DNA from: Chrysemys picta bellii
Taxonomy: Eukaryota
Reading direction: 5' to 3'
Assembly: GCF_011386835.1 (NCBI RefSeq)
Contig: NC_088802.1
Coordinates: 44,392,001 to 44,456,000, forward strand
DNA length: 64,000 bases
Both the position numbers and the translations under genes were made by a program. The first letter of the stretch is position 1. Every line of letters starts with the position of its first letter. The notes beneath the pieces were generated by a model, which was given only the letters and a program-made list of their open reading frames with translations, had not been told where the DNA came from and did not search any database. This document shows positions 10,101 to 37,004 of the stretch, one piece after another.

Positions 10101-11613
10101 GGTATATATCTCATGTAAGGACATCAAAGCACTTTACAAATGTCAGTTAAAACTATATAACATCAAATGTAGTAGGAAAGTATTTATATTTTATAGATGG
10201 GTAAACTAAGGCACAAAACTCAAGGGATTTACTCAAAGTCGCACTATGAACTGGTGACAGAATTGAGAAGTTCTGAGCCTCTCCTGGAGAATGCCCTGTC
10301 CACAGCTCTGTTTTTTTATTAGGAGAGGACTTTAAGTTTGAGCACCCATCTGACCTCCCAGCCCACCACCAGTTTCAAAGAGAAATGGAGATTAGGAAGT
10401 GGGCATCTGCTGGATGGCAGGAAGGGAAAGGAACAACAGACTTTTTTTGTTTGTTTTTTTTAAATGAGAACTCGGATTTTCCTTTTTGGGCACAAAGGCT
10501 GCTATGTTAAAGGGCCCACCTGAACCCATTCCAATTCATCAGTTAACAGTAAAAAGATAAACCTGACCTGGTGTAGAAGGATTCCCTACTACATACTGTT
10601 GAACAGGCCAAGAAGTGTAAAACCAGAGTAACTCCACTAAGTCAATATGCAACCAGGCATATGTAATATATGCCTGCCTACTCCCATGTCAGATTTTATA
10701 TACGTTGGGCCAGCTCTACTCTCAGGTGGACAGATGTAAGAACCAGAGTAACTTCAGTGACTTTAATAATTACAATGGTGTCACTGACAGCAGAACTGGC
10801 CCAACCTATAAGAACTGGCATGGGCAGATGTGCATGACATATAGATTTTAATGTCCCAGACCTGGCAGAACTATATACTTCTATTAGTCCTATTAGCACA
10901 TCAAACTACTCTAACTTCAGATACTCCGCTATGGATCAGGCATGATACAGAACTCTAGACAGGGTGACCAATGGGCAAAAAGGGGTAGCTAAGGCGGGAG
11001 GGAAGAAGGGGGGCAATGGCGGTTAATAATACTTAGCGCTTCTAAAGTGCTTTTTATCCATTGAGCTCAAAGTGCGTTTAAAAGGTATCTGGCACCTATG
11101 GACACACATACAACCTTGTAGCTCGATCACAGCAGGTAACCAGTCCACAACTACCTCTTTGTGCCACCCTTTCTGGCATGTTCTAGACTTTCATTGGCTC
11201 CAACATCACCTCGGAAGCCTAGGCAGCTCCCCCCCCATTAGGCTGTAACCACTACACAGCTGAGACACAACCAGATGGCGCCACAACAGCCCCCCCCGCC
11301 CCTACCGGTACTAACAGCCCATAGGCTAGTTACCGGGAGGCCGCACTGCGGGAAAGGGCGATTTCCTACCCCCGCCCGGGCTGCACTTAGTTCAGGGTGG
11401 GCGAGGCCCACCCAGCCCCCGGGTCCCACCACTGCCCTTCCCCGGATAGCGTCCCACTGCCTCCCCTTGACGGACTCTCCGCTTCCCAGGGCGGAGCCCT
11501 GCCCCATCCGCTAATCGCCCCCAGACCCCCCCCCGCGTGCGGACCCGCTCCCCCCCCGCACACTCACGCAGCCTGTTCACCCCCAAACCCGCCAGTCGCC
11601 CCAGCGCCGCCAT
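7131..11613 (-). CDS. MRPL27: 39S mitochondrial ribosomal protein L27 (bL27m), complete, 147 aa
   Basis: Exons complement(11568-11613, 8689-8811, 7813-7880, 7131-7337) = 46+123+68+207 = 444 nt, all GT-AG. Translation: [147 protein letters not shown]. This contains the bL27 signature (ASKK-GGSSKN...GN-LATQR...HPG-HVG-G---TLFAL-DG-V-F). It is head-to-head with EME1, as in human. Confidence 0.97.
9178..9360 (+). mobile_element. MIR-like CORE-SINE
   Basis: Contains the CORE motif 'gtctcagtttccccatctgtgaaatgggtattaatac'. Confidence 0.6.
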
Positions 11614-20094: not shown

Positions 20095-22665
20095 CCCAAG
20101 AGAACATGGATTTTACTGGTTGCCTGGTTAAACGTATTCATCTCCCTTCTAGGAGGAAAAGTGTATTGGGTCTTGCTTGTAAAGACTTAACATCTCCTGT
20201 TTCTGAAGCCTGCAATGGAGGATGCCTGAAATGCTCTACAGGTGCTGTTTTCAGAAAGCACTGAAATGTTTTCCTTGGCCAAGGTGCTGTGAGAGTGTCT
20301 TTCTGCCTGTGATAAATTGCATTTTCTGTCCTGGGAATAAATCTTCTCTACTCTTCCAAGTAGATGGTTTGCTCTAGGACCTATTAGGACTGCTGTATAG
20401 GGCCAGCTCTCCTTTACATGAGCCAAGCTATTTCCAGTATCACCCTTTAAGGAAATCAGCTGCTACGATTTGTCCTTTCCCACACCAGTGAGTTAAAAAA
20501 CAAAACCGACCACTAGTACTGGAGAGACATTGGCTCATTCATAGCTGTCTAATAACACTTGCTTGGAAACAGACTACAAGGTTGTGCTATTAGAATGGGA
20601 GAATTTTATCTTTGGTATAGAAAGAAAAAATCCCCCCCCATGAAAGATGTTTTGTACCCCACTCAGGTACAAAGTTTAGAACTGCACTGACTCAAAGGCT
20701 CCAGCTGCAGCTTGAGCTATGGGGGCGTGAAGTGTGATTTATGGATTAGCGAATGAGTGGAGCTCTAATGGGCTTTATTTGTAGCAAGAGATGCTTTAAG
20801 CTAGGGAGCATCTGCCTTTCGATATGTGCACTTTACTTCCCCTAAAGCCATCAGTACTCAAATGCATCTGTGAGGGCAGCTGAGGTCTTTCAGTACTCAA
20901 AGCAATTATTGAAATGAGTACTAAGTAAAGTCAAATGCTATGCACTGTATATAACTTATTGTACTAGAGAGGAGAAAATATCCATTTTTCTCCAATACAT
21001 CCATCCTGAGATCATCACTACAGCTAGTAAGTGATTTTTTGCAGTGCTGTTAAGGCCTTTGGGATAGTCCTACTGTTAGGCTGTGATAAATTTTAATATT
21101 ATTTCCAGTGCATCTGCTGACTGCTACAGGTCTTTCTCCCATGAGGCAAACTTCACTAGAACAGTTGTCAGGTAGAACACACTCCTCTACTAGCAACAAC
21201 CTGTGCCTATAAGGGGGGTACTGATGGTTCATAAACAGTATTTGCAGCACCTCAGAATAACATACTATTCAGATAAAAAGCAAGCACTTGGGTCAGCATT
21301 ATGGTGGTAGTGTATGGTACAACTGTCAGGTACTCCATGTCTCAACTTGCCTCGGTGGGTTAAGTAGCGTGCCACTGGAACACCCTGCAGCGTATCTTCC
21401 TTTTAGCTGAAACCCCCTCACCACTCTGTTACAATGGAGCCAGGGAGAAGTACCATTACCTTGTGTCCAGTTCGATTAAACAGCATAGGTGAAGGCTTAT
21501 CTTCCTTTCTGTGCTGAACTGTTGGGAATGTGTGAGTACAGTAATCCTGCACACTGCTGTACAGCAACAGAACAGCTGTGCTGAATCACGGGCACAGAAC
21601 ACCAGAATTTGTAGGCTGTTACACTTTAAACACAAAGGCAGTACAAGATCTTATACTGCTAAGGCCCTAGCAGACAAGGTGACCTACGGAAACAAGAGGA
21701 TGCTAACGTGAAACTGGCCAGTTTGAGACACTTTATGGAGAATGGCCTCTACTATATGATGGGTTCTGCCCAGGTGTCTTAATGATACTGTATCCTAGTG
21801 TCACCCATTAACTAATACTGTCCCTAACATAGATTGGAGGTGAAAGATTCTATTTTGATGGCTAGCTGTAGCACCGCTGTCATCTTTCAACAATCCTTCT
21901 GGAGCCTACTCCAGCTCTCACTCAGGGAAAACCAGTCTGCATGGCTGCCAAGTCTTTCCTCGGAATAGCTGTTTTGACACTAGCTTGCTCAGGTTAGTGG
22001 TCCCACTATGGTGTAATAGTAAAATATGTTAGCATACAAGCTCCTAATCAAAACTGAGGCACTGTACAAATGTATGTAAACAATGTAAATATCCAGCTCA
22101 GAATCAGACACCAAACTGCTGCGAAAACTGTTATATTGACAAAGCTGACAATTCTTATTTCAACAGCATTTCATCACTCCACCACCCTGATGTATCAATA
22201 CACAGCCATCCTACATACTTCGAATGGGTCCTGGAATGGGCTTATGTATATTTCTATACCATACAGCCACACCACCACTGATTTTACCAAAGGTTTGCAT
22301 GAACCTTCCTGCAAGTGTCAGCAAGAAGATGGATATACTCCACCTCCTTACAGGGCCATAGTTACCCATGTGGGTTATGGCTTTCCTCACTCCTCTGTTG
22401 ACTGGCAACCTCCTGCTCCATGAGTGAGGGAGAGAGTCTTAACATGTTCTAATTTAATGTTAGCAAACAACAGGAGTTGCAGACCAGCTGAGACACAAGC
22501 ACAACAAAAATGATCTAAGCAGTAGTTCTGCTCTGTTCTGAATGGACCAGCAAATCCAGTGCTGACTGATTAAAGGCAGTTTCACCAGAACACAATTCCA
22601 TAGGAATTCTGGCTGTGTCGATGGTGGCAAGAGATGCTGACAATGCACATGTCCAGGTAGCAGCA

Positions 22666-25600: not shown

Positions 25601-28497
25601 TAGTTTATTTTAACAAGAGGAGACACCATACTGATTATATGACTTAAACATGAAAATGAATAATACAAACCACCACTTAATTTAAGTGAGGCTGCCACAG
25701 ACTCCAGGAGCCCTTGCTTAGGTCCAACTTGCCTCACAGTGCACAGGGCTTTGACCATGAAAGTGAGGTAACAGACGCGTTAATGATGAAGAAAGCTGTG
25801 ACAATAGACACTGATCTGACTTTTCTACACAAGAGATGAACCCCACCCCGCTGATGTCATCTACCAGGCTACATACATGTCTGATAAAGGAATGTCTAAT
25901 AAAATCTGCATTGGGCTAGATCTTCAGCTGGTGCAATTTGGTGCAGCTCCACTGAGACTTCCATGACTTTGCTGAGTGTTTGGAGCGCTGTCTCAGCGTT
26001 CGTCTCAAAGCTGCTGCTTCAGGCAAAATCTCTCCATTAAATAAAGAAATCCTCCTTGCAGCCTGTGCGCTGGTACTAGGTGTATCCACTGCTCCATGAT
26101 CACATGGTTTTTCTAAGGCTGAAAAAGGGGATGTGATCCCTGCCTCAGGAGTAGCAGAGAATTGCAGCAGCATAGGCTCCAACCTGCTCTAGCCCTGCTC
26201 CGTGGCTCCCAGCAGTAACTCTTCACACAAGCCTACAGATTGCCGGCACTTCTTCAGAAGCTCAAAGCTGGGTATGGATTATTTTTCTCAGTACCGTCTT
26301 TTTCCTAGTGATCAACATTTAAATGTTCACTCTTAAATGTTCACCTCGGGCTGAGCACCCAGCTTAGCTCACTTCCTAGATCCCCGGTCAGGGCACTAGT
26401 GAAATCACTGCAGGATTGGCTTTGAATGGGATTAGCCTCTCCCTCCTGACCGATACCTTAAAAATTGCCATGTTGAGAGCCTCCAAGCAAGAAGAGGAGA
26501 AAGAACGGCCATGGAAGCCATGTAGGAAAACAAGAATAAAATACAGAGCAATTTCCTTACTCTGATAGCGGCCTGTTTACATTGCTTCTCATCCAGGCAG
26601 TCGCCTGCCACCTTGGCCAGGCTAGGATCCAAGGGGTTGTCCTTCAGATCCAACCACTTCAGATTCTGCAGGAAGGAAACACAAATGGGACCAGGCTAGA
26701 GTAGGCACACATCAGTACAATGTTAAAGAAAGAGCAATAACAAGACTGTGTTTTATTCTAGAGAGTTCAAAGCAGAAACAAAGAGCTATTTAGTTGTCAG
26801 GTGAATGAAAGAGATATGGGAGACAAGTGCAGATTTCAGGCAGGAGTTTAATTGCAACAAAACTGTGGCAGTTTTGTCAAGGGCAGTGCTGCAGATCCCA
26901 GTTACATTTTGGAGCTCATAGTGGTCTGCTGGCAGAGAGACTGACATTTTACTAGAGAAATCAACTTCAGAAGAATCATGAGACTCTGGGCTACACTCCA
27001 AGGCCTTACGTAAACTGCCTAGCAGAGGGGGTTTACCTTGAGCTGTGCAAAACTGACTGGTAGCATGGCTAATCGGTTGTTCAGGAGATCCAGGTGCTGC
27101 AAGTTAACCAGGCGACCAAAGTCTGAGGGGAGTTGCTGAAGCTGATTTTTACTCAGATCAAGTTTCACCAGGTGGGTCAAACTGCAGAAGTCCGACTGGA
27201 ACCCAAACAGGAGTGAAGAAGTTTACAAGCTTGTCAATCATCTTTACTAAGGAATAACAGATATATCAGCTAGCGTATGCTGCACACTGCAGGGAGCTGA
27301 GGAAGATCTACATGGACTTGGATTCATTACAAAGCTGCTTGTGTGATGAAGGAAAGTTACTCTCTTCCCCCTCTACTCTCGAACGGTGAAGTAGGGAACA
27401 GTGGATACTCTCCTAAACAGCGCTACTCATAGCAATATAATTACAATGAAAATAAGACATACAGTGGTGCTTTTGGTATCCAGCTGGTAGAGCACTTTGG
27501 AATGGAAACTGCTATAATCTTCACTGAGTACACTCATTTTCTACAAGAAAGCCCAGCTAATATGCTATGCCAGCCAACCTCAGTAAAAGTCAATCACCTA
27601 CACTGACCCCTCTGTAATGGTGGCAGTGTCACTCATCCTCCCAAGAAGCTAAGAGAACTGTTAGTTACCACACTCCCGCCTGGTCCTCCCATGCAGGAGG
27701 ATTGTACCTTTCCAAAGGTATTTCCAAACAGACCCCTCCCTCCTCCACAAAGCTTCTCTCTCATCTTACCGGTAGGGAAGTGAGGTTGTTACAGGACAAA
27801 TCCAATATGGTAGCCTTTGGAAGGGCAGCCTGAAAAAGAGCCAAGGAATCAAATTAAACCTATTTCAAAGCTACAGTACTTTAATGCAGTTGATACCCTG
27901 CTGTTTACGTTTCTGTTTCAGTCTTTGGGATTTCTCCCATACATGGAGTTAAGAACTCCCCAGTTGTTACCATTCGAGTTACCTTTGAGACGCTTACATC
28001 TCACTCAAATTCAGGGGCTTATGAACACTGCTCCCCCTGAAACAGGTTCTTCACCCAAAGCATCAATTTAACCCACAATCCACCAGATTTGTTAAATCAG
28101 TCGGGAACCTTCTCTTCTTCAGGTCACTTCAACCACCAAAAGTCAGGACGACAGGAAGAGTTCAAGGTTGTGTATCCTTCTCTTCAGGAGAAACAGTGTG
28201 TGTGCCTTCCAAACACACAACGGGCAACACCTCAAGCTGATAAAAACCACAAAACTTACACAGGGCCCAAGACATTCCCAGGAATCACCCCGCCTCCCCA
28301 CCCCCAGGATTAGTACATTCACAAAGACCAGGGGTAATCTCAGAGGCTCCCCTGCAATACCTTACATCCCCCCAGGAAAGACTGATACTGACCAGTTCTT
28401 TGACTGGTACCTCATTCAGGTCACTCAGGCTCAAGTCCAATTCATTGCCATCAAGTTTGTCTTTCAGGTTTACTCCTTTTCCTCCAGCTTTTGCCAT
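22666..28497 (-). CDS. LRRC59: Leucine-rich repeat-containing protein 59 (p34; ER/nuclear-envelope membrane protein), complete, 306 aa
   Basis: Exons complement(28393-28497, 27770-27829, 27037-27195, 26561-26665, 25262-25334, 23701-23874, 22666-22910) = 921 nt, GT-AG. Translation includes [55 protein letters not shown], the LRRs, the coiled coil [35 protein letters not shown], and a C-terminal TM segment [20 protein letters not shown]. Confidence 0.97.
27853..28132. repeat. Copy A of a locally duplicated ~280-nt structured segment (LRRC59 intron between coding exons 1 and 2)
   Basis: Aligns by eye along its length to 30583-30861. A 35-nt block is identical (27909-27943 = 30633-30667). Confidence 0.85.
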
Positions 28498-29540
28498 GAT
28501 CCTATTGAGAGAGAAATTCAGAGTCTCAAGTGGCTCATTCTTGGAACGGGAAAAAGACAAGGAATGGAGATGGGGGGGCACCAATACATTTTAACAAGCC
28601 TCCAGATTTTCTTTTACTCTGTATCTACCTAACAAGTACAGCAGGAGTAATGACAGCTGTCATTCCCTGCATGTATGCCTCAACTGTAACCTTTAAGGAC
28701 CTCCTTTAGAGGCCAGGGATATTTTGGTCCCCCTGGGCCATTCAGATCTTGCTGGTCCAGGTGCCAGTGTTTACCAGTTCAGGCTAACTGAGGATGTGGC
28801 TTTTGCAACCTGCCTACTGGGAACTGGACTGACAGCCCACCAACTCATTTAGCACAGGCTACTGAACAGCCCACCACATGGGAAAACTATTGGTCGTTCC
28901 TCTTTACTAGTTCAAGCTGGATATGGACTGGCAACCTCCACGTGAGACGCCTGATAGAGATCCTTAGTGTAGGTCACAGCGTGCACCTTCAAGGCTTTTC
29001 TGACTGAGCAAGAATTTTATTTTCTCAGAAATAATCCAGCCTCCTCCAATGCCAGCCTAGGGAGGTGTTCATGGCAGCAGGGCCTCTAGGCACAGTGAGA
29101 ACATTGTGAAGTTTCTGTTTGTCCCACTGTCCGAGGGTTGAGGTTTTGGGGGGATGGGAGTGGGCTATCCCCAGGGTGTTTGTGAAGAGAGCTCTCTGTT
29201 TGAAGGGGAGCCATACAAGAGGGGTAACATGATCCCGAGTGGAGGGGGTGACTGGCTAGAGGGGGAGGAAGCAATACTGAACAGTGCATTGGCCCGGCTC
29301 CCTGACCCTCCGTCCCAGCACATCCTGCTGCCACTTTGCTGCTTTTATTCCCTTGCTTCTGGTAAAGGGGGCGGGGAGCACAAAGGCAGGAGCAGGGCGC
29401 ATCCCCAGGCGCCTCAAGGCGGGGGGCTTTACAGACACTGCATAGAGAGAAGATGAACCCAGTTCCCATCAACCCCATCCCCTGTGGGGGTGCCCCAGCC
29501 CAGCCAGGGCTTCCCCCCAGGGGGCCAAGAGGGAGCCGTA

Positions 29541-29800
29541 GACTGAAAGGCCTCCCCAATGCTCCCCTGCCACCCCCGCACAGGGACCCCCCCCATCCCA
29601 ATACCCTCGACCGCCCCCCCACATGGATCCCCCATCCCAAGACCCCCCGGCCGCCCCCCCCCCCACGGATTCCCCCCATCCCAATACCCCCCGGCCGCCC
29701 CCGCACATGGACCCCCCCATCCCAATACCCCCCGGCCGCCCCCCGCACAGGGACCCCCCCTCCCCAATACCCCCGGCCGCCCCCGCCCAGAGGCGGCGGA
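29541..29800. repeat. ~40-bp GC-rich minisatellite, 5-6 copies, at the start of LRRC59 intron 1
   Basis: Unit approximately cacagggacccccccatcccaatacccccggccgccccccg. It is G-rich on the LRRC59 sense strand. Confidence 0.85.
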
Positions 29801-29830
29801 GCGACCCCTCCCCTCGGGCCCCGCACTCAC

Positions 29831-29900
29831 CGTACCGCCCCACTCCTCTGCTGCCAGCCACTTCCGCATCCACGTCCCCGTCTCAGCCCACCAGCGCCAA
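29831..29900 (-). promoter_or_regulatory. LRRC59: Probable non-coding first exon and CpG promoter of LRRC59 (5' end approximate)
   Basis: Strong donor ACG|GTGAGT (exon ends 29831) inside a CpG island with an ETS motif CGGAAGT. The ATG exon carries an acceptor (tttctctctcaatag|GATCATGG) 4 nt before the ATG and sits in AT-rich, non-CpG sequence. Confidence 0.6.
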
Positions 29901-29994
29901 CGAGCCGGCCCGCTGGCCAAGAGGGCCCCACGCTCAGGCCGGAGGAGGAGGGACAGAGCGGCGCCCTCTGCAGGGCCAGCGGCTCTCAGCTGAG

Positions 29995-30475
29995 CGAGTG
30001 AGCGAGGGTGGGGGAGTGGCTGAAAGTGGGAACAGCGGGCGAGGTGGGGAGGGGTGAAGTTGGGAGCAGGGGGGGTGGGGAGGGGTGAAGGTGGGAGCAG
30101 GGGGAAGAGGTAACGGGGAAGGGTGAAGGTGGGAGCAGGGGGCGAGTGGGAAGAGGTGGAGAGGGGAGGAGTGAAGGTGGGATCAGGGGGCAGGGGGAGA
30201 AAGGGGAGGGGTGAAGGTGGGAGCAGGGAGAGGTGGAGAGGGGAGGGTTGAAGGTGGGAGCAGTGGGAGAGCAGGGAGAGGTGGAGAGGGGAGGGGTGAA
30301 GGTGGGAGCAGGGGGAGAGCAGGGAAGGGTGAAGGTGGGAGCAGGGGGAAGAGGTAATGGGGAAGGGTGAAGGTGGGAGCAGGGGGCAAGCGGGGAGAGG
30401 TGGAGAGGGGAGGGATGAAGGTGGGAGCAGGGGGAAGAGGTGGCAGGTGGGAGGGGTGAAGGTGGGAGCAGGGGG
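29995..30475. repeat. Purine-rich degenerate minisatellite upstream of the LRRC59 promoter
   Basis: About 11 copies of the core gtgaaggtgggagcag at roughly 30-47 nt spacing. The plus strand is almost all G/A. Confidence 0.85.
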
Positions 30476-30582
30476 CAAGGAGGAGAAGGCCCTTGCTAGC
30501 ACTGCTTTGTTTAACACAGTTGAGGGTGACACTGTTTCCCCTTAGTAGCTGTGTCTGATAGGGGCTCGGAAGCCCCGTTATT

Positions 30583-30861
30583 AAACCTGTACCAGAGCTA
30601 CAGTGCTTTAACGTATCTGACACTCTGCTCAAGTTTCTGTTTCAGTCTTTGGGATTTCTCCCATACAGAGAGTTTTAAGAGTTTTCCAGTTGCCACCATT
30701 GTGATCTCTGCCACACATCACTTTTGAGACACTTTTAATCTTCCTCAGATGCTCACTCAAATCCAGGTGTTTATTCCCCCTGAAATTGGTCCTTCCCCCA
30801 AAGCAACAACTTCATCCTCCAGCTACTAAATTTATTAGATCCATTTTCTTCAGGTTACGTC
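30583..30861. mobile_element. Copy B of the LRRC59-intron segment, inserted with a 13-bp target-site duplication
   Basis: AAGCCCCGTTATT occurs at 30570-30582 and again at 30862-30874, flanking sequence similar to 27856-28130. Confidence 0.8.
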
Positions 30862-31009
30862 AAGCCCCGTTATTCTGGGGAGCTCCCCATGTGAATCAGA
30901 GAGCCCACGAAATACTGGATGCTAAATCCCTCTGCACACATGTGTTGATCTCTGTTTACATGACAAGCTTGGGTGCTAAAATAAACCCAGGGGCTAGCCT
31001 TGGCTCTGA

Positions 31010-31734
31010 TGTAACTGAGGTATCATGGATCCAAGGGAGTGCTATGTCTCCTTAAACTGGGGCAATTATTTAGCATCTATGCTCCCTGTGGAATTGGTAT
31101 TCTGTGGTCTCTCCCTGCTTATCTTGCCACGGGGCTGCTTGTGCCTCAGTTTCCTGATCTCTGTAATGTGGTGTGTACCCCACAGGCTGTGAAGGGGTTA
31201 ATGTGGGTTTGAGGGGCCAGTTAGGTTACCTGGCTGCATCTGTAGGAAGAGTCATGTCTAACTGAATAAGAAGCCCAGATGGCCAGGAGTATAAAGACAG
31301 GAAGTTTGCAGCAGAAAGAGGCTGCAGGGACAGAATCTGCAGTTGCTGTCTGGGAGGAGCATGGAGGAGGGGAGGAGAAAACCAATGTGGGAGAATAAGT
31401 CCTGGGGTCCTAGCCCTGGAAGAAGGGTCAACCCCAGAGGAGTTGTGGCGAAAGGAAGCTTGAGAAAGCTAGGAAGGAAGAAGCCTAGGGAAATAGTAGC
31501 AAGGGGTAGGACTGTGCGGATCTTGTCTGCTTGTTATAGGATCTCTGGGCTGGAACCCAGTGTAGAGGGTGGGCCTGGGTTCCCCAACTGGCCACTGGGA
31601 AGTGGCACAGGAGTGTTGGCGATGCTCACCGGACAGCTGGTCCAGAGATACTTTATTACTCTGCAGGGGAAGGACTCTATAGTCACCTGGCTAGAGGGCT
31701 GAGTCACGAAGAGAGAACACCCTCAGTCGTGACA
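31010..31734 (+). mobile_element. Solo LTR (~725 bp)
   Basis: TGTAAC...GTGACA termini and an internal TATAAA at 31290. The end resembles other turtle-type LTRs (ctggctagagggctgagtcac...gtgaca). The TSD is not clean. Confidence 0.6.
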
Positions 31735-31968
31735 TGAGAGCGAGGGGTCACAGCTTGAGTAACTGACTGAAGAGAGTGCCAGACTGGACAAGAGCTGATT
31801 CCCCACAGCAGCCACAAGGAGTTGCCACCTGTAGTGAGAGAACCCTTCATTGCAGTTGTCCCCCTCGGATTCTCCTGGCACCTCTGGGACATGCAGGCCT
31901 CCGTCTCCCCCAACAGATGTTGGTGAACTGGGCAGTCATCCCACAACCTTGTCAGGATCTGGATCAAG

Positions 31969-32740
31969 CAGGGTTGCCAACTTTCTAATCACACAAAACC
32001 AAACACCCTAGCCCTGCCCCTTCCCTGAGGCCCCACCCCCTTTCCCATCCCTTCCCTGAGGCCCTGCCCCCCGTTCACTACATTCCCCCTCCCTCAGTGG
32101 CTCGCTCTCCTTCACCCTCACTCACTTTCACTGGGCTGGGGCAAGGGGTTGGGGTGCGGGAGGGGGTGAGGGCTCTAACTGGGGGTGCGGGCTCCAGAGT
32201 GGGACCAGAAATGGGGGGGTCATGGTGCAGGAGGGGGCTCCAGGCTGGGGCAGGGGGTTGGGGTGCGGGCTCTACCTAGGGGAGCAGGCTTTGGGGTGGG
32301 GCCAGGAATGAGGGGTTTGGGGTGTAGGAGGGGGCTCCGGGTTTGGGGCACAGGCTTCCCTCTGGCAGCTCCCAGTCAGCGGGGGGCTGAGGCAGGCTGC
32401 CTGCCTGTCCTGGCACCGCACTGCACCCCGGAAGCAGCCAGCAGGTCTGGCTCCCAGTCAGAGGCATGGCAGGTGGCGCTGCACGCTGCTCTCACCCACA
32501 GGTGTAACATCGACAGACCCTGATTGTCAGTGGGCAGGATTGAACCTGGGAACTTCGGCGCTAAATGCATGAGTCTCTGCTGCATGAACTAAAAGCCATG
32601 TGGCTCTTAGCTAAGGCTGTAGAGCAGACCCATTAATCTCTACGTGATCTCAATGCCATTAGATGGGACAGAGCACCATGCCCAGGAGGCCTGTGGGTTA
32701 CACAGGCACTGCCCCCACAGGTCCCATTGGCCAGGAACCA
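31969..32740. mobile_element. GC-rich hAT-like MITE (truncated), interrupted by a nested 200-bp element
   Basis: Starts cagggttgccaactttct and has the ggggtgcaggagggggctc-type internal repeats typical of this family. The host sequence resumes after 32702. Confidence 0.6.
32503..32702. mobile_element. 200-bp LTR-like element (TGTAAC...GTTACA) with a 4-bp TSD and internal tRNA-like boxes
   Basis: TSD CAGG at 32499-32502 and 32703-32706. The minus strand has a B-box GGTTCAATCC (32537-32546) and an A-box-like TAGTTCATGCAG. A second copy lies at 54937-55136. Confidence 0.8.
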
Positions 32741-34899: not shown

Positions 34900-35506
34900 T
34901 GAGTAAGGTGAAGCCTCACTTCTTGGGTGACAGATTAAGGAGGTAAATGGATTGGCAGGCTGTAAACAGAATGTCTGTGCTAGCTCCGATAAGGGGGAAT
35001 GCTCAAGGAGCCACTTACAGTGGACAAGATAGCAATGGATAAGATAAGTCAGGAATGTAAATGTAAGATAAAGAGAAAGTCATACATGGAGAGCGCGTGG
35101 ACGGCACATACTGTACTGGGATTGGTTCCTATGAAGTGCCTAAGCAAATTCCACAATGTGTAATGCAGTATACATAAAGGAAGAGGTTTGCAGTGTAATT
35201 TTGATGGGTGGTATGCCCTGTACCCACCCCATATGCTTAAGCCTGATCAACTCAAGTGTAGTTTGACTGTATGCCAACAAAGTAATGAGTTCAAAGGTGA
35301 GTTGAGTTCTTGGGAACCAAGTGGATAAGGTCTCAAAAGCTACCCCAACATACTCCTAAGTGGATACGGTCTCAGAGGCTACCCCAACATATCAGCACTG
35401 TGACTTGGATCTAGAGCAGATAACGTAGAAACCCCTTAGGTGAGGGTCACAACCAAGCATTAAGAGAAATGGCACTGGAAGGATTTAAGGGTTTAAATAT
35501 AACAAA

Positions 35507-35721
35507 AAGAACAGGAGTACTTGTGGCACCTTAGAGACTAACAAATTTATTAGAGCATAACCTTTCGTGGACTACAGCCTACTTCTTCAGATGCATCCGA
35601 AGAAGTGGGCTGTAGTCCACGAAAGCTTATGCTCTAATAAATTTGTTAGTCTCTAAGGTGCCACAAGTACTCCTATTCTTTTTGCGGATACAGACTAACA
35701 CGGCTGCTACTCTGAAACCTG
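35507..35721. mobile_element. Penelope-like retroelement terminal fragment in inverted (palindromic) configuration, with a 13-bp TSD and hammerhead-like cores
   Basis: TSD TAAATATAACAAA at 35494-35506 and 35722-35734. The palindrome 35504-35683 is centred on ATGCAT (35591-35596), with 4 non-Watson-Crick positions in 90 bp. The sequence gtggcaccttagagactaac...cagactaacacggctgctactctgaaac is the reptilian Penelope terminal repeat as I recall it. Confidence 0.88.
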
Positions 35722-37004
35722 TAAATATAACAAAGTTAGCTGAAGAGATAGGTTAAATCTAAAGGAGGACCCTATGGGAAGTATTGGGGTAGACTGGGAT
35801 TGGGTAAAAAGGAATTCCACTCGGAGGGAAAAAAGAATGTTTGGCAGAAGATAGTAGAGGTCCATTGAATGCCATAAATAAAGTATTGGCTAAGCACAGC
35901 AAAGGTCCGTTAAATGCCACTACAATTAATAAAAAAATAGGACCCATTGCCAGCCGTGGAAAAATAGTATCTAGTTTATTTCCCCAAGGCAAAGAAAATC
36001 CAGATGAAGGCAGCATTTTCACAAGAATTGTTTCTGGTGGCTAAAACTTCACAAACAAACTATGCCACCTTAAGGAATGAATGTAAAAAGCATAAAGAGC
36101 AAAGGAAAGTTGAAAAGAAGAAAAACTAAGTGGAAATAAAATCCTAAAAGGTCAGGGAGAAAACAGTGTCTGTTACCTATTTGCATAAGTCTAAAATAAA
36201 AAGGAGCTGTCCTTCAAGGACTGTATTTAATGAGTACAGCTTTGCAGGCCAAGTGTACTAAGTTAAATAAGTGTAAAAATAAATACATGTTTAAAAAGCT
36301 TAAAGCTGCCAAAACAATTTGTCTAAAAATATCACTTTGGGAAAGAAGTATGTGGTTTTTTTTAAATAAAAGTAAGACGTTAGAAGCTTTTGCACAAATA
36401 AACACTGCAAAGTTTGAAGGGAATTCGACAGCTGGGGGTTGTGGAACAGTTAAAAAGAATGTTACGTGTTAAAGAAGAGAATGCTTGGTTTAATAATAAA
36501 CCTGGTTATGGCAGTATTATTCTGGGCGGTCACACCTGGTGAAAACCTTAGCAATAAAACAAATTATACAAAGGGGAGGTCAGGTGATGACGGCTCGTGC
36601 TACTATCTGCTTTTTTTCCTGAGAAGCCTTTACAGTCATTCATTCTGAAGAAAATGGGCCTTTCCCAGTGAATGTGTCTGTCAGTGATCAATTTGTGCTG
36701 GCCACTGCAGGCAAAGTAACAATCGAATTTAAATGATTGAACTATAAATGATTTAGTCAAAATCACTAAAAAGGAAATAGGGATTTCTATATGGCTTGAC
36801 TGCTTCAAAATATACTAGTAGAAATAGAACCTGGGTACAGGTGAGTTGTGGGGGAGGGGGCGATTTAAGAGCAACGCAAGGGACATTAATCCGCTCAAAT
36901 AACAAATTGGTTCCCCCCCTCCTTTTTTTTTTTTTTACAATTTAATTCTGCCTCACAAGTGTGGGCCAGAATTAGAGCCCATATAGGGGGTATGCTTCTC
37001 CCAG

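Follow-up and report, generated by a model that had tools for sequence, protein, structure and literature searches.

A short direct duplication of intron sequence beside a leucine-rich-repeat gene of Chrysemys picta bellii

The locus and the two segments

The window is a stretch of 64,000 nt from contig NC_088802.1 of Chrysemys picta bellii. It contains a minus-strand gene whose exons code for a leucine-rich-repeat (LRR) protein. The gene is probably LRRC59, the name that a sequence-only reading had given it; searches returned only 'leucine-rich repeat'. RNA contigs joining 27828 to 28392, with CT..AC ends, were found in four out of four runs, which places intron 2 at 27830-28392 on the minus strand. 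A non-coding exon 1, beginning near 29831 according to loose contig ends, precedes this intron. The RNA evidence consists of assembled contigs, from which ends, strand and level are not readable. The features are as follows.

27770..27829, minus strand: exon 3, from spliced contigs
27830..28392, minus strand: intron 2, 563 nt, GT..AG, containing segment A; spliced contigs in 4/4 RNA runs
28393..28502, minus strand: exon 2, where translation of the LRR protein starts, from spliced contigs
27849..27856, minus strand: two predicted branch-point-like As matching yUnAy, at 27854 (-25) and 27849 (-20)
27853..28138, no strand assigned: donor segment A, in the 3' half of intron 2; right end uncertain (28131-28138)
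27909..27943, no strand assigned: 35-nt block in A, identical to 30633-30667
30583..30861, no strand assigned: acceptor segment B, the inserted copy, oriented like A
30633..30667, no strand assigned: 35-nt block in B, identical to 27909-27943
30570..30582, plus strand: left TSD copy, whose last 3 nt (ATT) are microhomologous with the donor's left end
30862..30874, plus strand: right TSD copy, whose first 2 nt (5 of the first 7) match the continuation of the donor

Pairwise alignment of A (27853 to about 28138) with B (30580 to about 30869) gave 204 matches, 50 mismatches and 57 gap columns (K2P 0.23). This bears out the sequence-only reading, which had described them as direct copies, diverged and with indels. 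They share the same orientation and lie 2.7 kb apart, start to start. The insert, 279 nt between the TSD copies, is found about 0.7 kb past the 5'-most transcript base seen. The same reading had reported a perfect 35-nt block and an exact 13-bp repeat around B with no counterpart around A, and all three hold. The block is bounded by mismatching letters on either side, the window contains exactly two occurrences of the 13-mer (30570 and 30862), and no exact flanking repeat of at least 7 nt was found around A. With an identical loose search, flanking repeats of at least 13 nt were retrieved in 2 of 300 random intervals. The substitution spectrum between A and B is symmetric (C>T 12, T>C 11, G>A 6, A>G 5) and therefore carries no editing or RT-strand bias, which rules out that the divergence arose through RNA editing or hypermutation by a deaminase. 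An assembly artefact was ruled out by contigs of an independent study, in which the flanks that the 35-nt block has in B are present. Both segments have likely drifted neutrally since the duplication.

The shared sequence had also been said to stop at the branch point of the intron. The As at 27855/27854 lie at -26/-25 relative to the 3' splice site of intron 2, and the A at -25 matches yUnAy, the branch-point consensus; the copy ends within about 2 nt of 27854, the first branch-point-like A. However, a second yUnAy candidate of equal quality is found at -20 (27849), so that the branch point of intron 2 is not fixed. Among the RNA data, X15 contains a single contig across the whole intron and X17 passes 28132 unbroken, while A falls outside the coverage of runs X18, X19 and X20; these observations count neither way.

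Copy number, age and constraint

When the genome was searched at the DNA level, using B or the complete intron as query, two copies only were retrieved. This search skips very common words, a limit that affects neither the pattern search nor the contig depth. The 35-mer, with 3 mismatches allowed, matched twice in the genome and not at all in the control, and a 23-mer, with 2 mismatches allowed, gave one extra match, which showed no extension, against 1 in the control. For organism C, one DNA run showed the 35-nt contig at a depth of 44 and the flanks at 20-22, the ratio expected of two copies, and an A/B profile over 1.26 Mb detected nothing further under E 0.88. A high-copy or low-copy repeat is ruled out by these copy searches, the contig depth and the profile. 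Since only two copies were found, the proposal that A and B belong to a small retroposon family is unsupported; neither many dispersed copies nor the Pol III A and B boxes of a SINE or small retroposon were detected. The perfect TSD would be explained if B were young and had come from a third, diverged source; no third copy was found, which makes such a source improbable.

The fourteen runs that contain at least half of the query words come from near-identical relatives, and B was present in the one such run that was examined. A further comparison was provided by relative D. When compared by hand with the A/B alignment, three of the six D substitutions listed, together with one 2-nt length difference, side with B. 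B thus retains older letters lost from the A of this genome, and the copying therefore predates the split from D.

The sequence-only reading had suggested a snoRNA-like or otherwise conserved intronic RNA and constraint on the 35-nt block. Neither suggestion was borne out. With E values up to 10 allowed, Rfam gave no match for either segment, and no C box, Sm site, A box or B box was found in them. Terminal C and D boxes, or an H box with terminal ACA, define snoRNAs and scaRNAs, and neither combination was present. The sense strand of A does fold with a z of -2.45, and the block contains a 4-bp hairpin capped by a GAAA loop. Yet 2 of 23 control windows fold equally well or better than A, B reaches a z of only -0.65, and of the 25 base pairs of the A fold that are changed in B, 15 are broken, 8 are kept on one side and 2 are compensatory. 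Over 621 nt, 33 letters and 20 gap letters separate relative D from A, a divergence equal to that of the next intron (34 letters and 19 gap letters in 633 nt). Within the block, D carries a substitution at 27931 that turns the loop into GAAG (in 2/2 samples of one study, with one contig under depth 5), and its single change compares with 1.9 expected under neutrality (P 0.44). Conservation of sequence or structure above the intron background was not detected in this one relative species, which at about 5.5% distance gives modest power. An exact run of at least 35 is mildly unlikely by column shuffling (P 0.003-0.006) and counts in favour of a functional RNA or a retroposon family. Nevertheless, with two copies only and a neutral rate of change, it is highly improbable that A is a stable functional intronic RNA of the snoRNA or scaRNA kind, or that A and B are small retroposons of one family that share a conserved recognition block. 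This reading is largely refuted. The exact block is likely due to chance plus detection bias, or to an old, short gene conversion between the neighbours. It is unlikely that B recently converted A in this lineage, because the A of D mismatches B at only 1 of the 35 block sites.

Junctions and the origin of B

The 3-nt ATT microhomology at the left junction was already described in the sequence-only reading. Homology also continues into the first letters of the right TSD copy (2 exact nt, 5/7 alike), so that microhomology exists at both junctions, the right one being a new observation. No tail or filler was found at the B junctions, and the junction sequence lacks poly(A/T) tracts of at least 5 nt at the insert ends.

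Repair-mediated duplications (RDs), which overlap the 'doublets' of Thomas et al. cited therein, were described by Pace, Sen, Batzer and Feschotte (2009; PMC2671141). In the RD passages of that paper, donors lie within 5 kb in 824/1,136 cases and under 3 kb in 753/1,136, RDs are 50-619 bp long with microhomology of 2-9 nt, deletion or filler at the junctions, and they are also reported in chicken and zebrafish. Among 39 proximal duplications, 6 have a TSD of 4-21 nt, 5 of these 6 with microhomology; a poly(A/T) tract occurs in 0/39 proximal versus 17/29 inter-chromosomal duplications. As 6/39 proximal RDs of these passages carry a TSD, the premise of the sequence-only reading that a TSD marks reverse transcription is not supported. 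The A/B pair shares with RDs, as described there, the single other copy, the near donor on the same chromosome (2.7 kb, within 5 kb), the size (279 nt), the microhomology (3 nt left, 2 nt right), the absence of a poly(A) tract and the TSD (13 bp) that a minority bear. Compared with most of that set, it is older and more diverged, its acceptor is not shown to lie inside a transposon, its polarity comes from the TSD rather than from an empty site, and it ends at a branch-point-like site, a feature that the RD passages leave undiscussed.

Local duplications of this kind are ordinary and have been described before. B is a one-off copy of A, probably made by DNA-templated repair of a staggered break, although DNA and RNA templates are not distinguishable by sequence, an unspliced intron piece being the same in either case. 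The claim that A served as the template for inserting B, at a staggered break and with microhomology, is supported. On this reading, a break with 13-nt 3' overhangs would have let the left overhang, ending in ATT, pair with ATT at 27853-27855 and prime about 280 nt of synthesis on the donor. The newly made strand would then have annealed to the opposite overhang through 2 exact nt (5/7 alike), and fill-in synthesis would have duplicated the 13-mer, as in synthesis-dependent strand annealing or polymerase-theta-type repair. Short local pairs 50-5000 bp apart number 12 in 1.26 Mb, A/B included, compared with 10 in total for pairs 50-200 kb apart in the same survey; some of the 11 other local pairs may be LTR pairs or pieces of low-copy repeats.

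Several observations speak against DNA repair. It does not predict that the copy should end so close (about 2 nt) to a branch-point-like A, for which the rough chance is 1-2 in 100, given a few such sites among the 281 ATT/AAT triplets at most 5 kb from the acceptor. The primer end is T-rich (TTATT/CT), similar to a LINE nick, and would prime on sense RNA. The TSD represents a minority outcome, a flanking repeat of at least 9 nt being found in 1/17 local pairs, A/B alone. The intact 13-bp TSD has a P of about 0.035 given the A/B divergence, the exact block has a P of 0.003-0.006, and a repeat family that generates 13-bp TSDs was active in the window.

The position of the copy end and the T-rich primer would be accommodated by RNA-templated insertion in cis. 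Here an intron 2 lariat with its tail trimmed to slightly past the branch point, or else the nascent pre-mRNA, would have been copied by reverse transcription at a staggered break close to the promoter of the same gene; the T-rich 3' end would have annealed to AAU in the branch site, and synthesis would have halted after 280 nt. Priming at the yUnAy A at -25 would avoid crossing the 2'-5' bond, and the TSD and two-ended microhomology are compatible with such an event. Patching of breaks by RNA, intronic sequence included, is known from the templated sequence insertions (classes 1 and 2) of Onozawa and Aplan (2016; PMC5110952), which resemble B in being non-repeat, often intronic inserts at breaks, class 1 with a TSD and class 2 with microhomology. 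However, those RNA-derived insertions come from distant loci whereas the donor here is local, class 2 lacks the TSD that B has, and the poly(A) and upstream polyadenylation signal of class 1 (TSIP/LINE) are missing. For the TTTT/A-like site of class 1, TTATT/CT is a partial match, and a TSD is present. The junctions need no RNA: tail, filler, splice junction and crossing of the lariat joint are all absent, and the copy stops mid-intron. The candidate A at -20 also counts against this reading, and local DNA-type pairs are common, so that some will end at a branch-point-like site by chance. No precedent for insertion in cis templated by a lariat or intron RNA was found in the literature searched. 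We consider an RNA template in cis unlikely, and the narrower proposal, that a lariat trimmed to its branch point templated the TSD-flanked insertion by its own promoter and left a germline fossil of lariat-templated DNA repair, quite unlikely. A tailless retrocopy made in trans by LINE endonuclease and reverse transcriptase would share the traits of the tailless retropseudogenes of Noll et al. (2015; PMC5322556), namely a TSD of 8-30 nt, no tail and 2-18 nt of complementarity between site and copy end, all of which B displays. Such copies also occur in a lizard, and a TSD-making repeat family is present here; lariats and turtles are unmentioned in that paper. By contrast, the source here is no known abundant RNA (no Rfam family), and B is a single copy beside it, whereas further copies would be expected from an abundant RNA. 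Chance landing at most 5 kb away in 2.37 Gb has a probability of about 4 in a million, and the poly(A/T) contrast between proximal and inter-chromosomal duplications in the RD passages of PMC2671141 points away from it. This origin is very unlikely. As a sign of the relaxed L1 machinery that goes with tailless retropseudogenes, PF02994 (L1 ORF1) was searched for, with 0 matches in this genome and 0 in the controls too.

Taken as repair, the A/B pair is one further RD, with unusually clean junctions and from a lineage outside the survey described in the RD passages of PMC2671141, and matters little. Its value is as a prompt for asking whether local duplications end at branch points. Should such ends exceed the chance rate, this would show that excised introns write into the germline beside their own genes; if lariat templating were true, a hidden share of vertebrate local duplications would be RNA-templated and mark branch points.

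Two features were seen in the sequence around the target site, and both are possibly break-prone.

30561..30576, no strand assigned: hairpin with a 6-bp stem, overlapping the start of the left TSD copy
30877..30888, no strand assigned: 12-bp palindrome shortly beyond the right TSD copy

The duplicated segment and its host intron

An intron segment (A) and its copy (B) lie in the same orientation, with the following layout:

27830-28392, minus strand: intron holding A
27853-28132: A, the donor segment
27909-27943: 35-nt block in A
30570-30582 and 30862-30874: 13-bp direct repeat (TSD) flanking B
30583-30861: B
30633-30667: 35-nt block in B

Aligned over 27853-28132 and 30580-30861, the copies match at 204 positions and mismatch at 50, with 57 gap columns (K2P distance 0.23), and the 35-nt block is free of any mismatch. 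The 13-mer occurs at only two sites in the window (30570 and 30862), and both ends of the homology carry it. No comparable flanking repeat was found around A in a loose search, which returned repeats of at least 13 nt at 2 of 300 random intervals; B is the acceptor because it carries the TSD and A has none. The sequence-only reading, which had described two copies with an exact 35-nt block and a TSD restricted to B, is borne out by the alignment and both searches. The microhomology that it gave at the left junction (ATT) is present; its description was incomplete, as the right junction has microhomology too, the right TSD copy opening with 2 nucleotides that match exactly (5 of 7 alike).

Spliced contigs from all four RNA runs define the intron bounds. 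The first exon upstream of this intron is non-coding and lies near 29831, and the exons encode a leucine-rich-repeat protein, which we take to be LRRC59. The branch-point consensus, yUnAy, matches at -25, where a branch point had been placed, and also at -20; the former is therefore a candidate, not a fixed position. Two G/C-skewed minisatellites (29562-29789 and 30038-30455, with spacings of about 41 nt and 23-48 nt) bracket the first exon and sit between A and B.

A/B is a duplication confined to two loci and does not belong to a repeat family. Queries of the 2.37-Gb genome with B and with the whole intron retrieved A and B only. The 35-mer, with up to three mismatches, gave two matches against none for the control, and a 23-mer with two mismatches gave one extra match, which did not extend, against one control match. 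In a DNA run of organism C (separate study), the 35-nt contig had a depth of 44 against 20-22 in four flanking contigs, and B's letters were present on both sides of it. The check proposed earlier, two loci versus many in this genome, thus returns two, which argues against the unannotated small retroposon family then suggested.

Age and the functional-RNA question

The A-B distance is about four times that to organism D, a relative, and A-B substitutions are symmetric, as expected from neutral drift on both copies. Six of the nine differing letters of organism D in 27833-27988 are listed and were read by hand against the A/B alignment: three match B (27864, 27889 and 27908), two are private to D (27886 and 27931) and one is unlike both copies (27885). 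Behind 27950, organism D has two extra nucleotides, as does B. These shared letters and the shared length place the departure of B from A before the lineage split from D.

A functional RNA at A, or an A/B repeat family, is a reading to which we give scarcely any weight. The sense strand of A folds with a z of -2.45; however, 2 of 23 control windows fold equally well and B reaches -0.65. Of the 83 pairs of the A fold, B leaves 49 unaltered and breaks 15; another 8 are kept on one side, 2 are compensatory and 9 fall in gaps. Rfam gave no match in A or B (four weak matches fell within 26500-32000), and no C box, Sm site or Pol III box was found. Over 621 nt of the A-holding intron, organism D shows 33 differing letters and 20 gap letters; the corresponding counts for the next intron, over 633 nt, are 34 and 19. 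The snoRNA-like or stable intronic RNA raised earlier is disfavoured by these missing motifs, the fold comparison and this neighbour-like divergence. Constraint on the 35-nt block had also been suggested, and organism D carries T27931C within it in both samples (one study; one contig at depth <5), changing the hairpin loop from GAAA to GAAG. This single change is in line with neutrality (1.9 expected) and argues against all but weak constraint, in a conservation test covering organism D alone, one species at modest distance. The strongest fold among the 23 control windows (20400-20679, minus strand; z -5.9, 25 shuffles) belongs to a single-copy stretch.

Background of local pairs

The background set comprised the window plus 120 10-kb stretches, 1,263,848 bases in all, and, after tandem-repeat and multi-hit matches were dropped, held 92 pairs unique within it. 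Fifteen lay 50-5000 bp apart, three being pieces of a single larger duplication. With these three set aside, short local pairs, possibly including LTR pairs or pieces of low-copy repeats, numbered 12 with A/B, against 10 in the 50-200 kb class. Among 17 pairs (<10 kb apart, <700 nt), only A/B had a flanking repeat of at least 9 nt; three had an exact run with P <=0.02, the two besides A/B partly owing this to alignment into poorer flanks. The set also contained a near-tandem duplication of about 3.2 kb (L089:3993-L090:782; 91-96% identity) and a direct pair 4.2 kb apart (L096:246-479 and L096:4653-4887; 235 nt, 99% identity), interpretable as a repair-mediated duplication or an LTR pair, young in either case.

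Formation of B

A/B is a real, old, two-copy local duplication of an already known kind. In extracts of Pace et al. (2009, PMC2671141), repair-mediated duplications have donors within 5 kb for 824 of 1,136 single-copy insertions and lengths up to 619 bp, are present in chicken and zebrafish too, and occur at a rate linked to LINE-made breaks. None of the 39 junctions examined there had a poly(A/T) tract and six had a TSD of 4-21 nt, five of these with microhomology of 2-9 nt. A/B agrees with every sequence feature given for the class in those extracts. As repair-mediated duplications sometimes carry a TSD, a TSD alone is no mark of reverse transcription, contrary to the premise of target-primed reverse transcription on which the sequence-only reading had relied. 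Class 1 templated insertion, from what part of PMC5110952 describes, was ruled out, B having no tail and a local donor.

A trimmed lariat of the intron itself, acting as an RNA template in cis, predicts identical junctions, and the template strand has the intron RNA's polarity if synthesis was first primed by the T-rich end. The copy ends at a branch-point-like A, which DNA repair would produce by coincidence in roughly 1-2 of 100 cases by our estimate. At the age of A/B, an intact 13-bp TSD (P about 0.035) and a 35-nt exact run (P 0.003-0.006, with no correction for such runs themselves making pairs detectable) are both somewhat unlikely. At about ten local pairs per megabase, some pairs will have such coincidences; no precedent for lariat-templated insertion was found in searches of the open-access literature, and we regard this origin as unlikely. 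A retrocopy made in trans deserves very little credence; B resembles tailless retropseudogenes, as far as portions of PMC5322556 portray them, at the junctions only.

B was probably made by DNA-templated repair of a staggered break. Its insertion site is flanked by a hairpin with a 6-bp stem on one side and a 12-bp palindrome on the other. The break would have had 13-nt 3' overhangs, the left one, ending in ATT, pairing with A and being extended by about 280 nt; the new strand would have annealed to the opposite overhang, and fill-in synthesis would have duplicated the 13-mer. A mobile-element endonuclease may have made the nick, because the site is T-rich and a fold-back repeat at 35507-35721 has its own 13-bp TSD.

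That repeat (215 nt; 91-bp fold-back; 114 matches in 1.26 Mb) is multicopy, lies within an exact 13-bp direct repeat (35494-35506 and 35722-35734) and is presumably similar to the inverted terminal repeats found in Penelope-like elements; the interval 35494-35734 shows that TSD-making insertions have happened in the window. At 10621-10753, an exact 13-bp direct repeat encloses 107 nt that match nothing else in the 1.26 Mb; this may be another TSD-flanked insertion or a tandem duplication that has decayed. On visual inspection, the stretch at about 31090-31850 resembles an LTR, starting with TG and carrying a TATA-like motif; it has just two matches of 41-47 nt in 1.26 Mb.
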